From NCBI GenBank assembly GCA_944327105.1, contig CALVGN010000040.1, positions 4,247 through 68,246 of the forward strand: DNA of 64,000 bases, written 5' to 3'. The notes under the pieces are model-generated. The model worked only from the letters and a program-made list of their open reading frames with translations. It was not told the DNA's origin and searched no databases. Source of the DNA: an uncultured Erysipelotrichaceae bacterium. Its GTDB lineage: Bacteria; Bacillota_I; Bacilli_A; Erysipelotrichales; Erysipelotrichaceae. Position numbers and translations under genes: made by a program. The first letter of the stretch is position 1; every line of letters begins with the position of its first letter. Below are positions 125-39,839 of the stretch, piece by piece.

Positions 125-1619
125 TCGTTTCTCCGTTATTGATGGCGATCCCATCGAGTGAATAGGATTTCACTTCCGTGATCTTGACCTGCACTATATC
201 CCCACAATGGATCCCTTCACCGCTAAAATTGACCAATTTGTTATGCCGAGTATAACCACTCCATACATCGTCATTTTTTTTGCTTGGTCCATCCACTAGC
301 ACTTCCACGATCGCATCCTTGTATTTCTGATTATTCAGATTGCTGTAATACGTGATGCGTTCATTGAGCTGCTGCAGCCGTTTTTGCTTTTCGCTAAACG
401 GGATGTGATCTTCCATCTTGGCAGCCGGTGTGCCTTCGCGGGGTGAATAGATGAAGGTGTAAGCCAGATCATACTGGCAGCGATCGACCAAGGATAGCGT
501 GTCTTCAAACTGGGCTTGGGTTTCGTTTGGAAAACCGACGATGATATCCGTGGAAAAGGTCACGTCGGGAATCGCCGTTTTGATCTTGTCGACCAAAGTC
601 AGGTAATGCTCGCGTGTGTAACGTCTGCCCATCAGTTTGAGTATGTCACTGTTTCCGGATTGGACCGGAAGATGAATCGCTGGCATTATATTATCATACT
701 TTGCAATCACCGTGATCATTTCATCCTCAAAATCAAACGGATGTGATGTGGTAAAGCGGATACGGGGGATGCCGGTTAAGGCCACTTGTTCCAAAAGCGT
801 GGCAAATGTGGTTTGACCATCCAGATCCTTGCCATAGGCATTCACGTTTTGGCCTAACAATGTCACTTCCTTGTACCCTTGAGTTTTGAGTTGGTTCACT
901 TCATCGATGATATCTGCCATTTTACGGGAACGTTGCTTGCCACGGGTAAAAGGAACGATGCAATACGTACAAAATTTATCGCACCCATACATGATATGCA
1001 CAAATGCTTTGTGGCGGCTATTGCGTTGTGCCGGCAGATTTTCCACCACTTCACCTTGATTGCTGAGCACTTCGACGGTACGTTCTTTGCTTAAAACCGC
1101 ATTGAGCAACAAATCCGGCAGACGATGGATATTGTGTGTTCCAAAAATCAAATCGACTTGAGGGTACTTGGATAAGATCAGATTCACGGTGGCTTCTTCT
1201 TGGGCCATGCAGCCGCATACACCTAAAATCAAGTCCGGATTGTTGCGTTTGAGTTGTTTAATGGCACCCAGCTGTCCAAAGACTTTATCCTCAGCATTTT
1301 GACGGATCGCACAGGTATTCAGCAGGATCACATCAGCTTGTTCCATCGCATCGGTTTTCGCATATCCCATGCGTTCAAACAATCCGGCTAAAGTCTCACT
1401 ATCGCGTTCATTGGCTGCACAACCATAGGTGCGAATGAAATAATATCGCCCTTTGCCCAGATCGACGGTGGCTTCGGGTAATGAAAAATCGGTACGGAAA
1501 ATCGCATCATCGCCCGGCGTACGGACACGGGCGGCTTTTAAATCAGGAAGGATATAGTTTTTCTTTTTATTCATAGAGATATATTCTATCAGGTTTAAGG
1601 ATGGTTCAACCATAATCAT
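117..1619 (-). CDS. miaB: tRNA-i6A37 methylthiotransferase MiaB
   Basis: 500-aa ORF with an MTTase N-domain (YFIRTYGCAANERDSE), a radical-SAM CxxxCxxC (YGCDKFCTYCIVP) and a C-terminal TRAM-like region. The true start is probably the ATG at 1574 (MNKKKNY). Confidence 0.9.
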   Translation of the reverse strand: MIMVEPSLNLIEYISMNKKKNYILPDLKAARVRTPGDDAIFRTDFSLPEATVDLGKGRYYFIRTYGCAANERDSETLAGLFERMGYAKTDAMEQADVILLNTCAIRQNAEDKVFGQLGAIKQLKRNNPDLILGVCGCMAQEEATVNLILSKYPQVDLIFGTHNIHRLPDLLLNAVLSKERTVEVLSNQGEVVENLPAQRNSRHKAFVHIMYGCDKFCTYCIVPFTRGKQRSRKMADIIDEVNQLKTQGYKEVTLLGQNVNAYGKDLDGQTTFATLLEQVALTGIPRIRFTTSHPFDFEDEMITVIAKYDNIMPAIHLPVQSGNSDILKLMGRRYTREHYLTLVDKIKTAIPDVTFSTDIIVGFPNETQAQFEDTLSLVDRCQYDLAYTFIYSPREGTPAAKMEDHIPFSEKQKRLQQLNERITYYSNLNNQKYKDAIVEVLVDGPSKKNDDVWSGYTRHNKLVNFSGEGIHCGDIVQVKITEVKSYSLDGIAINNGETNE

Positions 1620-1724
1620 CCATGTAAGCGGTTAGATAAAGGAAATTATGGTTTCAATGGTTTAACCATCGATTTTTTCGATTAAAATAATACACGTTTT
1701 ATCAGGAAAGGATGGTTCGACCAT
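1601..1724. repeat. three copies of the 13-nt palindrome ATGGTTNNACCAT in the miaB/phosphatase divergent intergenic region
   Basis: ATGGTTCAACCAT at 1601-1613, ATGGTTTAACCAT at 1657-1669, and ATGGTTCGACCAT at 1712-1724. The last one overlaps the ATG at 1723. Confidence 0.9.
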
Positions 1725-2454
1725 GAATCAGTTTCGTATACTCCATATCCCTCATATGACCAATCTACGTGATCTTGGTGGTTACCAGACCATAGATGGC
1801 AAGATCACCCGCTATGGCCGTGTATTCCGCAGTGACACCTTATCCAATATGGATCCCAATCAGCTCACGGATTTTATTCAAACCAACCACATCAGTGCCG
1901 TCATCGATTTACGCCGACCCAATGAAGGTGGTGACACCAAGTATGCGTTACCAAATGGATGTACCTACCATAACATTCCTTATTGGTACAACATCGCGGA
2001 TGACAAGCAACGCAAAAGTCATGTGGACTTTTCCCAATATACCGTATCTCAGTTTTATATGGCCATGGTATCCCATGGTTGGGACAAGACTATTCCCATC
2101 ATGCATATCATTGCCGATACTTTATCTAAAGGCGAATCGGTTCTGTTTCACTGTACCTTTGGCAAAGACCGTACCGGTATCATCGCCAGTATGGTGTTAT
2201 CCATCGTTGGATGTTATGAAAGTGACATCATGACGGATTATATGATTTCCTTCCCGTTGATCCATAAAAACGAGTTGGAACCATTGATGGACAATACGGA
2301 AGAGAATCGCTTCCAGCGCTCAGATGCCATCAACATGTTCGAATTGATGGAATATTATGATGCCATAAATCTCAAACAGGCGATGCTTGATCATGGTTTA
2401 GATCAAAAAGATCTGGACATTATCGTGCATGAATTGACTGCATCCGTGGAATAA
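1723..2454 (+). CDS. protein-tyrosine phosphatase (Y_phosphatase3-like)
   Basis: 243-aa ORF with the CX5R(S/T) P-loop HCTFGKDRTG. AAAGGA lies upstream of the ATG. Confidence 0.8.
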   Translation: MNQFRILHIPHMTNLRDLGGYQTIDGKITRYGRVFRSDTLSNMDPNQLTDFIQTNHISAVIDLRRPNEGGDTKYALPNGCTYHNIPYWYNIADDKQRKSHVDFSQYTVSQFYMAMVSHGWDKTIPIMHIIADTLSKGESVLFHCTFGKDRTGIIASMVLSIVGCYESDIMTDYMISFPLIHKNELEPLMDNTEENRFQRSDAINMFELMEYYDAINLKQAMLDHGLDQKDLDIIVHELTASVE

Positions 2455-19110: not shown

Positions 19111-19187
19111 CAGTATGTAGCTCAGCTTGGTAGAGCGCTCGGTTCGGGTCCGAGAGATCGCAGGTTCAAATCCTGTCATACTGACCA
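19111..19187 (+). tRNA. tRNA-Pro (anticodon CGG)
   Basis: Hand-folded cloverleaf. Acceptor stem cagtatg/catactg, U8, D-stem gctc/gagc, anticodon stem ctcgg/ccgag with loop ttCGGgt (G37), T-stem gcagg/cctgt with loop ttcaaat, discriminator A, and an encoded CCA. Confidence 0.88.
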
Positions 19188-19261: not shown

Positions 19262-20162
19262 AACGGTCGCGTTCATTATATTCAAAAGCAATACCAAAGA
19301 AACAGACCGCAAGTGCAGCTAGGGTACAACAAATATTTCAAAACTATGCCAATAAACCACTGACCGAATTGAAGGCTGAATATGTATTCGAACACCTAAA
19401 TCAATATGTGGATCAAATCTCAAACGATATGATGTTCGCCCTATTATTCTTATAGCAACAGATACATAAAACGGCCATTCTGGATATCGTGATCCACGTC
19501 AACTATGCGGATGTGGTGCCAAAGCCGATCAGCAAGAAAATGATCAAACCTCGTCCGGTAAGACTAACACTGCCACTATGCAGAAGATCATCATTACAAT
19601 AGCCAAACATCGTGGTTACAACAAAAAAAAGCGTACGACCATCAATCATTCATCTATGCTTTGCTATTGATATACTATCGGTATTTCGCTGGCTGAGTGT
19701 TTAACAATCAAACGCAATGCCATTGGTTTTAATAAACAACCATTTCCATTGGACCGCAGACCGGATCCACGGCATTTGATGCGTTGACCATCGCATTATC
19801 TAAGACAGCACAATCAGTCCGTGAATAACCATTGATTCCGGAAGTTGTACTGATTATAAAAAATCTAATGAAATACTCAAAGTACACCCCACTGTTCTAT
19901 CGCTTCAACGGTCATTCAGGTGTAATCGATGATTCTCGCGGAAAATTGGATGGTGCTGTCACAACTACGGTATTGATTTCAATGCGTACCAATTACGCCA
20001 TCTATTTGCAAAACGGTTAATGGATAAGCGTGTAACCTCAGGACATTTATGGGTCTAATGGGTCACGCATCGTTAGGAAAAAGCATTGGAGAGGATAGAT
20101 CCAGTATGGATGACCGTATGGATGACCGTAGAGAAGCCATAATGAAAAAGACCAATTCCTAG
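19262..20162 (+). pseudogene. tyrosine recombinase (phage integrase family), multiply frameshifted or stopped
   Basis: Fragments in several frames resemble integrase blocks. Examples are ISNDMMFALLFLIATDT*, ...MRTNYAIYLQNG (the HxLRHT..A..L....G block) and LMGHASLGKS (the LLGH.S box). There are many stops. A 12-nt tandem duplication tatggatgaccg x2 lies at 20105-20128. Confidence 0.65.
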
Positions 20163-20536
20163 GATTCTGTTTTACTTAACTTTAAGGTCCGTAACTTTTC
20201 GTATTTAACATCGCTGATCGGGTATACGGTTTTCACCTTCAACATTTTAGATTGGCTCATTCGTACTGCGACGAGTACATTATTATCGAGCTTTTTTATA
20301 AATTCGTATGAGTTATTTTTGCGATCGAAGTCGATGAAATCAGGCCCGGCAACAATTTCATCAATTCTTAACATGGTTTCTGTATATCGACCTTTTACAG
20401 AATAATCATCTTTATGCCGTTCAAAATGAGCGAATCGATCTTCATACAGAATAATCATCTTGCCGACCATTTCCGTTGGTAAGCCATATTTAACTGCATA
20501 TTCTTTTGAAATTTCTAATAAAACACGATACTTCAT
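20159..20536 (-). CDS. hypothetical protein, weak resemblance to PBECR-type (Barnase/EndoU/ColicinE5-D/RelE-like) phage-associated nuclease domains
   Basis: 125 aa counted from the ATG at 20536 (MKYRVLLEISKEY...ILYEDRFAHFERHKDDY...IVAGPDFIDFDRKNNSYEFIKKLDNNVLVAVRMS...VKTVYPIS). The family call rests only on remembered motif spacing. The ORF-track extension to 20614 reads through an RNA hairpin and is rejected. Confidence 0.45.
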   Translation of the reverse strand: MKYRVLLEISKEYAVKYGLPTEMVGKMIILYEDRFAHFERHKDDYSVKGRYTETMLRIDEIVAGPDFIDFDRKNNSYEFIKKLDNNVLVAVRMSQSKMLKVKTVYPISDVKYEKLRTLKLSKTES

Positions 20537-20540
20537 AAAC

Positions 20541-20773
20541 GAAAAAGAACTCCCCTTCGATTGAAGGGGAGTAAAACACAAGATAATGGCGGTGGGGCGG
20601 CAAAACTCCCACATCTCATCAGGATCAACTCCCTACACTTGACACTTACGTGCGTGATAGCCTCCGACTTTCTATCCTCGTCATTATCGAAAAGCACATC
20701 GGCTTAGTGGTGCTTCACCACTACGTGTACTATAACATAAATTCATTCTAGCGATATGACAAAATCGCTACAA
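20541..20773 (-). promoter_or_regulatory. promoter + ~190-nt structured leader + intrinsic terminator upstream of the 20536 ORF
   Basis: Minus-strand TTGTAG (20773-20768), a 17-nt spacer, then TAGAAT (20750-20745). Hairpins include tagtggtg-aag-caccacta. The terminator is actccccttc-aatc-gaaggggagt (20572-20549) followed by tcttttt, ending 5 nt before the ATG. Upstream GGGAGT boxes could pair with ACTCCC to form an antiterminator. Confidence 0.5.
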
Positions 20774-20883
20774 AAATCCCCTAAATTGACGCCTGAATTT
20801 TTTCCCTGTTTTTGAAAAAAACGATAAATACATTGTTTTCGAGCCATCTTCAAACCCTGTCATATTCAACATTTAAACGATCA

Positions 20884-20900
20884 AACACGTGCATACGTGT
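20884..20900 (+). repeat. 17-nt direct repeat (putative attR core)
   Basis: AACACGTGCATACGTGT is identical to 19200-19216. It is also followed by a short hairpin plus T-run (tccctt-aaa-aaggga-cttttg, 20910-20929) and a similar gtttaa(a)c(c)g(g)t stretch. Confidence 0.8.
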
Positions 20901-21143
20901 TACAGAATTTCCCTTAAAAAGGGACTTTTGGTATTTACGTTTAAACCGTTGCATATAGGTTGCAGAAATATTTTCGTGATTCCCCTTATTTTCCTAATTT
21001 TGAAACAAAGGATTTTACAGCAATATGCCACATCAGTATTGTGTCGACACATAAAATCCGCAAGAACCAGTATCATTTTTAGAATGAATAGACATACACG
21101 TCGAAAACGCAGCTAAATCTCAAATATTTCAACATCAACCAAA

Positions 21144-39577: not shown

Positions 39578-39833
39578 TAAAAAACCTTTCGACTGTTATC
39601 GAAAGGACGAATGTATCGTGTTACCACCTTTGCTTTTAAAACTGCATCACTGCCGGTTTCCTCACCGAGTACCATCATACTCTTCCCGTATAACGTCGGG
39701 ATAACGTCAAAACTTAACGATTCAGTTTTGAAGCTCCAAGGCCATCTTCACATCGCTTTTGATCTTTGTCTTGCACCAACCGACAACTCTCTGATGATCG
39801 ACTCACGATGCTACTATTCTCTTCACAGCTTCT
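39578..39833 (-). promoter_or_regulatory. T-box riboswitch leader, Met specifier
   Basis: The minus strand carries the AGAGAG (GA motif), GGTGCAAG, and two candidate specifier contexts that are both AUG (gcgAUGu and gaagAUGg). The T-box sequence is AAAGGTGGTAACACG (39631-39617). The terminator is cctttcga-taacag-tcgaaagg followed by tttttt. Confidence 0.8.
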
Positions 39834-39839
39834 GGTATC

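Follow-up and report, generated by a model that had tools for sequence, protein, structure and literature searches.

A Skipping-Rope RNA Variant Encoded Ahead of a Predicted PBECR Endoribonuclease: A Possible Type III-Like Toxin-Antitoxin Module in an Uncultured Erysipelotrichaceae Bacterium

Introduction

Type III toxin-antitoxin systems, including ToxIN, CptIN, and TenpIN, are laid out as a promoter, an RNA, a terminator, and an endoribonuclease gene; the toxin is expressed by read-through of the terminator, and the systems are associated with mobile elements. Known type III antitoxins consist of tandem repeats that are processed by a ToxN-type toxin. Here, we describe a locus that shares this layout and is built from other parts, namely a variant of the skipping-rope RNA (Rfam RF02924) followed directly by the gene for a predicted ribonuclease (RNase) of the PBECR group. 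The locus lies on the minus strand of a 64,000-nucleotide (nt) stretch of DNA, hereafter the window, from an uncultured Erysipelotrichaceae bacterium (GenBank assembly GCA_944327105.1, contig CALVGN010000040.1, positions 4,247 to 68,246). By analogy with the type III systems, and at a probability that we would place at roughly 40%, it may represent an RNA-protein pair that acts in trans, as a toxin-antitoxin module of type III-like design or as an abortive-infection module, and that is borne by a decayed integrative element.

Skipping-rope RNA has been an orphan since 2017: conserved and complex, it is not a riboswitch or a self-cleaving ribozyme and was known to lie near an unnamed protein. 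In the passages of Weinberg et al. (2017; PMC5737381) that concern the motif, it is credited with a “compelling association” with a nearby protein, on either side and on either strand, and its complexity is taken as a sign of sophisticated biochemical function. The DUF3800-I to XI and drum motifs, as portrayed in the corresponding passages of that paper, are comparable in that each is an orphan structured RNA with a 3' terminator, one associated protein family, and variable orientation, although their RNA structures and protein families are different. PBECR (“phage BECR”) domains, in turn, are predicted RNases (Iyer et al. 2017; PMC5512222), and in the open-access papers found to mention PBECR, no pairing with an RNA is described. 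The protein partner of skipping-rope RNA is identified here as a predicted PBECR (BECR-fold) RNase, an assignment that may be new to the literature. The RNA and protein families of the window locus are each known; what is new is its extra RNA helix, its inverted RNA-gene order, and its type III-like arrangement.

Identity and Structure of the Window RNA

The initial annotation of this DNA could place the RNA in no family. It proved to be a full-length match to RF02924 (model positions 1-80) that passes the family's gathering score (Table 1), and a covariance model of our own, R1, scores it at 48.8 bits. Every RF02924 helix is formed, i.e., the closing stem P1 and three hairpins, and the conserved junction nucleotides GAGG, GAAA, GAGAUG, and GCCGCC are all found; as in other members of the family, an intrinsic terminator follows on the 3' side. 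The GNRA-capped hairpin cac-gtaa-gtg, which had been recognized from the outset, corresponds to helix P3. Covariation analysis, suggested along with the Rfam search in the initial annotation, revealed compensatory changes in 14 of the 20 helix pairs of the family. A separate all-pairs scan concurs, returning the known helices only and no clear long-range pair; a pseudoknot has been reported for skipping-rope by R-scape in Rfam 14 (PMC7779021), with its pairing nucleotides unspecified.

In the topology of the RNA, a closing stem of 8 bp leads through a 2-nt linker into a first hairpin and from there through a 1-nt linker into a second; a variable region, short or long, comes next, and then a 5-bp hairpin that joins the closing stem with no final linker. 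This arrangement is cloverleaf-like, that is, tRNA-like in topology. Neither the Rfam tRNA model nor ARAGORN called a tRNA on the skipping-rope RNA, and a counterpart of the tRNA “elbow”, formed between the P2 and P4 loops, was considered and rejected, as loop complementarity was no better than in shuffled loops (3.39 nt versus 3.27 nt). The resemblance is thus one of topology and of placement within tRNA arrays (see below) only. Finally, tandem repeats are absent from positions 20537-20800, in agreement with the initial annotation, and in this respect the window RNA, a single structured unit, differs from the type III antitoxins.

The Partner Protein Is a Predicted PBECR Ribonuclease

The open reading frame (ORF) that follows the RNA encodes a protein of 125 amino acids (aa) and is not the orphan that it was first taken to be, given that an exhaustive HMMER search returned 107 representative homologue clusters, nearly all of them solo proteins of 75-195 aa. 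An early guess that it specified a PBECR/RelE-like nuclease was sound; the protein matches Pfam families PBECR3 (PF18812; 52.9 bits, cut-off 30, E = 4.2e-14) and PBECR2 (PF18810; 35.3 bits, cut-off 27.1, E = 1.5e-8). Residues conserved in the family include H37, H41, P65, K81, and the motifs “LVAVR” and “(K/R)(T/S)xYP”, the window version of the latter being “KTxYP”, and H41 is nearly invariant in an alignment of 67 sequences. An AlphaFold2 model of the protein has a predicted local distance difference test (pLDDT) value of 93.5 and places H37 and H41 in a helix (residues 34-44) and “KTVYPIS” on the last strand (98-107). Because H41 is near-invariant, the H37, K81, R, and T/S motifs are retained, and the fold is modeled with confidence, the protein is likely to be an active enzyme, as predicted from its sequence and model.

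The model resembles the PBECR domains of phage polyvalent proteins and MuF-C, with template modeling (TM) scores of 0.55-0.64, and the window protein belongs to the same sequence family as these domains (PMC5512222; PF18812, PF18810). Unlike them, it is a solo, RNA-paired protein of 125 aa rather than a domain of a giant protein packaged in the virion. Among solved structures, the top-ranked neighbors were HigB, HigB2, BrnT, YoeB, ParE, and RelE, all of them weak (TM 0.3-0.4), so that the structural check proposed for the RelE-like assignment yielded a confident model and matches to PBECR and MuF-C domains, but only weak matches to the solved RelE, HigB, and BrnT toxins. A predicted likeness to RelE, HigB, YoeB, BrnT, colicin D, and colicin E5 would lie in the small, metal-independent RNase toxin fold; in addition to the weak structural matches, the family differs from RelE-type toxins and colicins in having no conserved neighboring gene for a protein antitoxin or immunity protein. 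The protein also lies outside of the ToxN, AbiQ, CptN, and TenpN families of type III toxins, and the AbiQ and ToxN models of PADLOC did not match it.

Linkage of RNA and Nuclease Gene across Genomes

Two kinds of search demonstrate that skipping-rope RNA and the PBECR gene are linked well beyond the window. In RNA-first scans, conserved RNA nucleotides served as the pattern and no protein was used. The scan of bacterial genomes gave at least 120 stretches, with 101 RNAs verified by our covariance model among the matches listed, a scope that holds for all bacterial pair counts below. A family gene was located within 400 nt of the RNA in 73 of the 101 (72%), a lower bound, since some RNAs are situated at contig ends; the gene lies upstream on the same strand in 68 of these pairs, is convergent in 4, and lies downstream in 1. 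In viral contigs, 91 RNA stretches were found, 23 of them with a family gene within 80 nt, and Rfam confirmed as skipping-rope RNAs all 17 of the viral stretches submitted to it (57-79 bits). The protein-first loci were obtained by exact-protein look-ups of 11 sampled homologues that are 23-49% identical to the window protein, and a clear adjoining RNA was present for eight of them: directly upstream on the same strand for seven (P0002-P0007 and P0037) and downstream of the gene for P0050. There was a weak match at the upstream position for P0009, and the contig end was too near to judge for P0025.

As adjacency is kept in three different arrangements, a functional tie explains it better than shared transcription does. 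No protein neighbor, including any antitoxin or immunity gene, is conserved across the PBECR family, and the RNA is therefore its sole constant partner; a specific protein encoded nearby is also what the passages of Weinberg et al. (2017; PMC5737381) on skipping-rope describe. In about 22 Clostridium loci from many species (e.g., L128 and L131), the PBECR gene and the RNA occupy one syntenic chromosomal site, flanked on one side by a SpoIVA-like gene of 492 aa and on the other by an asparaginase-like one of 330 aa (both named by eye), which suggests long vertical residence rather than recent carriage on a prophage.

The same linkage, whether in genomes, in viral contigs, or in the protein-first sample, would apply equally to a ribonucleoprotein in which the RNA serves PBECR as a cofactor, scaffold, or dedicated substrate (e.g., an RNA that the protein processes or that targets the protein) without any toxin-antitoxin logic, the module acting in phage-host conflict or RNA metabolism by some other route. 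We regard this explanation as somewhat unlikely. The Clostridium loci fit it, as they look more like settled residents than like selfish addiction modules, and so does the argument from motif complexity cited above. It is less easily reconciled with the occurrence of the RNA beside unrelated RNase toxins, which is hard to fit to a dedicated cofactor, or with the terminator and sequestered ribosome-binding sequence of the window and its relatives (both described below), which would enforce a large excess of RNA more typical of neutralization than of a 1:1 complex.

The RNA as a Probable Transcription Unit of Its Own

In loci where the gene precedes the RNA, a sigma-70 match of at least 10 of 12 consensus positions ends 10-25 nt before the RNA in 35 of 74 distinct upstream segments, versus 1 of 74 in-gene control segments under the same criterion, and a terminator is located 3' of the RNA in loci of both layouts. 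A deposited example is seen in Streptococcus phage phiZJ20091101-4 (KX077895; L228, 2450-2994), where the family gene is annotated as “spbA protein” and is followed by TTGACA-17-TAAACT, the RNA (88 bits), a terminator, and an attachment (att) site. Likewise, in deposited Streptococcus suis prophages, which use the same spbA annotation, the gene-RNA pair and its terminator come after the holin and lysin genes and adjoin the att site, the classic accessory (moron) slot. Since promoter, RNA, and terminator recur in both layouts, the unit is constant, and only its placement relative to the nuclease gene varies.

A Subclade with the RNA Ahead of the Gene

The window and eight homologous loci display the order promoter-like site, RNA, terminator, nuclease gene, and the view that the window holds a separately terminated RNA ahead of an RNase gene, in type III-like order, is thus upheld. 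These upstream-RNA loci stem from unrelated genomic contexts. In all nine, the RNA is followed after about 10 nt by the terminator and after 42-70 nt by the start codon, and several possess a recognizable promoter-like sequence ahead of the RNA, such as TTGACA-17-TATAAT in L096 and TTGTAT-17-TAGAAT in L226, at the same relative position as in the window. Most PBECR-skipping-rope pairs have the opposite gene order, which sets the family as a whole apart from type III systems, whereas this subclade has rebuilt the RNA-nuclease pair in the exact type III toxin-antitoxin layout.

The subclade RNAs also depart from typical skipping-rope RNAs in structure. An insertion of roughly 20-40 nt separates P3 from P4 (about 20 nt in the window, ~20641-20618), and within it all nine RNAs fold a hairpin of 4-9 bp whose pair types vary at each stem position. 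The flanks of the insertion are conserved in the subclade, with GUCAAGnGUAG on the 5' side of the hairpin and GAUGrGAUG on the 3' side. It is because of the insertion that these RNAs score low under our covariance model (21-52 bits versus 57-90 bits for typical members). The shared insertion hairpin and gene order place the window, as judged from sequence, in a distinct structural and organizational variant of the family. The extra-hairpin RNA was seen only alongside the window's protein subclade, a coupling that could also stem from co-inheritance.

Within the window itself, the promoter-like site consists of TTGTAG (20773-20768) and TAGAAT (20750-20745) with a 17-nt spacer; an alternative, overlapping site, TTGTCA-17-TATGTT (20762-20734, minus strand), matches the consensus at 9 of 12 positions. 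An 8-bp hairpin, tagtggtg-aag-caccacta, separates the RNA motif from the putative transcription start; its early coordinates were off by one base and should read 20723-20705. A hairpin occurs at the matching position in several homologous loci (by eye in L096 and L217), and it may act as a stabilizer of the 5' end. The leader had been described as structured, and the 204-nt leader is indeed more stable than all 200 of 200 shuffled sequences (z = -3.2).

The terminator begins 11 nt past P1, with the letters ACTCCCCTTC-AATC-GAAGGGGAGT followed by TCTTTTTC, and six of its 10 pairs are G-C. It is the top-ranked of six terminator-like sites (1.4 +/- 1.1 expected), which substantiates its initial description as strong, and it does stand just ahead of the ATG (20536-20534), the gap after the U-run being 4 nt. 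As was also noted early on, the sole sequence resembling a Shine-Dalgarno (SD) element, AGGGGAG (20556-20550), resides in the 3' arm of the terminator stem. Among five near-identical strains, there are no substitutions in the RNA and terminator and 10 in the ORF.

Two GGGAGT boxes in the leader (20633-20628 and 20610-20605) had led to the proposal that the window RNA is a cis-acting riboswitch or attenuator, in which GGGAGU/ACUCCC pairing would form an antiterminator and permit read-through. Both boxes exist and complement the terminator's 5' arm, and the RNA does lie in a 5' leader here. Nevertheless, such a role is highly improbable. Box 1 is the variable arm of the covarying insertion hairpin and box 2 overlaps P4; the terminator stems of the subclade loci are unrelated in sequence and show no evident complementarity to the conserved P4 sequence GUGGGA (both by eye), so that no antiterminator is conserved. 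The RNA, moreover, is located downstream of the gene or convergent with it in nearly all of the bacterial pairs, and it occurs without the gene in phages and inside tRNA arrays. A riboswitch or antiterminator was rejected on these grounds of gene order, solo copies, non-conserved terminators, and the position of box 1, and a non-cis conclusion for the family is likewise drawn in the pertinent passages of Weinberg et al. (2017; PMC5737381).

If the pair instead functions as a type III-like toxin-antitoxin or abortive-infection module, the promoter-like site would drive a transcript of about 200 nt comprising the 5' hairpin, the skipping-rope variant, and the terminator. With too little space for a separate promoter of the nuclease gene, and with its SD-like sequence held within a terminator stem of -17.9 kcal/mol, the nuclease would be made only by terminator read-through, and inefficiently, which would leave the RNA in large excess over the protein. 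Acting in trans, the RNA would then bind the RNase as its specific partner and keep it restrained.

Solitary Copies, Other Partners, and the Weighing of Alternatives

A number of observations weigh against a type III-like module. Within the window, the promoter-like site with its 8 of 12 consensus matches, for which reason it is missing from the promoter scan list, is not significant by itself, and such sites are not enriched over chance in this AT-rich stretch (4 seen versus 7.6 +/- 2.7 expected). The RNA is single-copy and the nuclease fold is unlike that of ToxN-type toxins. The search of solved structures returned nothing significant for the protein (best E = 0.037), the PBECR family is not listed as a defence protein by PADLOC, and no RNA was detected beside P0072, one of the 11 sampled homologues. 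Other evidence on this side comes from copies of the RNA whose neighbors are other than the family gene. For example, PBECR4 genes lie 3-18 nt upstream of the RNA in L148 and L185, a MazF-like (PemK/MazF-like) gene lies 123 nt upstream in L038, and in L020 the RNA comes after a CptN gene already equipped with a repeat antitoxin. The family gene is absent from 68 of the 91 viral loci, and 14 of the 91 viral RNAs are embedded in phage tRNA arrays, each 1-10 nt away from a tRNA on its own strand, like an additional tRNA of the array (Table 1).

The L020 locus (996-1800, minus strand) is a complete CptIN locus of the same layout as the window, with a promoter, two 46-nt repeats (1623-1714), a terminator, and a CptN homologue (E = 3.8e-22 to PDB 4RMO); the skipping-rope RNA and its terminator lie 26-36 nt past the toxin's stop codon. 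In L014, L197, and L205, an identical 171-aa protein abuts the RNA on its upstream side, displaying a ToxN-like motif by eye and no Pfam or PDB sequence match. It is tempting to suggest that a single-copy, cloverleaf-shaped RNA neutralizes or decoys small endoribonuclease toxins, chiefly PBECR3 and PBECR4, a broader proposal that is decidedly tentative and, in our estimation, quite unlikely.

The viral copies lacking a family gene occur in varied settings, between tail-fibre-like genes or near HNH, portal, or terminase genes. The neighbors of those in tRNA arrays are often tRNA-Ile or tRNA-Asp, and tRNA-array placement was seen for none of 105 copies in bacterial genomes. Such solitary copies, together with the RNA's own promoter and terminator and its occurrence after CptN, PBECR4, and MazF-like genes, lend themselves to the alternative that skipping-rope is an autonomous, phage-type small RNA (e.g., a decoy or a tRNA-shaped RNA directed at host or rival factors) that merely co-travels with small RNase toxin genes in moron cassettes and makes no direct contact with PBECR. 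This is an unlikely explanation, in that adjacency to one rare protein family is so frequent among the bacterial RNAs and survives inverted and convergent arrangements; the restriction of the extra-hairpin variant to one protein subclade also speaks against it, notwithstanding possible co-inheritance. Owing to the other toxin partners and the solitary and tRNA-array copies, both the autonomous RNA and the ribonucleoprotein described above stay alive as rivals of the type III-like module.

Should the RNA prove to be an antitoxin, it would be of a new kind and would provide a regulator for solo PBECR proteins, so far predicted RNases; neither a structured RNA antitoxin that lacks repeats nor an RNA partner for a BECR-fold toxin would have been known before it. 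In that event, RNA-based counter-defence would be suggested by the phage copies that stand alone or within tRNA arrays; phage pseudo-ToxI RNAs that disarm ToxN offer an analogy. Even if the antitoxin function fails, the linkage of skipping-rope RNA and PBECR ranks with the stronger RNA-protein associations that still lack an explanation in Bacillota and their phages.

Two further observations concern the copies of the RNA. Some loci have two or three skipping-rope copies (L056, 3012-3196; L025, 10770-11641; L140, L177, L180, and L198), spaced about 30 nt apart in tandem or lying within 0.5-1.5 kb of one another. In L014, a Bacilli-1 RNA (Rfam RF02931, 75 bits; 2108-2172, minus strand), itself an orphan motif, is found about 1.6 kb from the skipping-rope RNA.

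Genomic Context of the Window Locus

The module sits between rny and recA, with pgsA also flanking, and a related strain (L001) has the same locus. A tRNA-Pro gene and a frameshifted tyrosine recombinase remnant, the latter convergent with the nuclease gene, adjoin it (Table 1), and their presence suggests, at the level of sequence, that the module is carried on a decayed integrative element at tRNA-Pro. The merged recombinase fragment matches Pfam Phage_integrase with E = 1.1e-4 and 22.4 bits, under the cut-off of 27.1, and contains a perfect 12-nt tandem duplication, GTATGGATGACC, in 2.2 copies (20104-20130). No convincing att-site repeats were found for the putative island, and neither the DNA of the window region nor the window protein was similar to deposited phages; a typical family member matches, among the deposited phages searched, Streptococcus prophages only. 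Homologous genes have a repressor, transposase, resolvase, or SocA/MqsA-type gene as a neighbor, which, like the integrase remnant and the tRNA of the window, is in keeping with a mobile or conflict setting.

Table 1. Positions of the module, of its structural elements and neighbors in the window, and of skipping-rope copies located in viral tRNA arrays (L numbers denote other loci).
Feature	Position	Strand	Remarks
Promoter-like site TTGTAG-17-TAGAAT	20745..20773	-	Read from sequence; 8/12 sigma-70 consensus positions
5' leader hairpin	20705..20723	-	8 bp, loop AAG; between putative transcription start and RNA motif
Skipping-rope RNA (Rfam RF02924)	20584..20686	-	51.5 bits, gathering score 36.7, E = 2.4e-9
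Helix P1	20686-20679/20591-20584	-	8-bp closing stem, one A-C mismatch
Helix P2	20676-20672/20660-20656	-	
Helix P3	20653-20650/20645-20642	-	GUAA loop
Clade-specific extra hairpin GGGA/UCCU	20621..20633	-	In the insertion between P3 and P4
Helix P4	20612-20608/20596-20592	-	
Intrinsic terminator	20541..20572	-	10-bp stem, loop AAUC, U-run; free energy (dG) -17.9 kcal/mol
PBECR3/PBECR2-family protein	20159..20536	-	125 aa, ORF intact; predicted metal-independent endoribonuclease
Tyrosine recombinase remnant	19933..20117	+	Frameshifted; motifs YQLRHLFAKRL, LMGHASLG; six-frame translation
tRNA-Pro (CGG)	19111..19187	+	Likely integration site
tRNA-array copies of the RNA	L049 5265-5566; L012 2299-2462; L018 883-1043; L024 5427-5588		
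Further tRNA-array copies	L010, L035, L052, L054, L059, L070, L085, L086, L089, L092		

Two minor observations may be added. A related metagenomic contig (L003, positions 1-38, compared with window positions ~20881-20920) is fully divergent from the window upstream of ~20881 (ATCGTTTAA...), reflecting either an assembly artefact or an alternative left junction of the module. Finally, a T-box leader (Rfam RF00230, 117.7 bits), unrelated to the module, is present on the minus strand of the window at 39600-39835.

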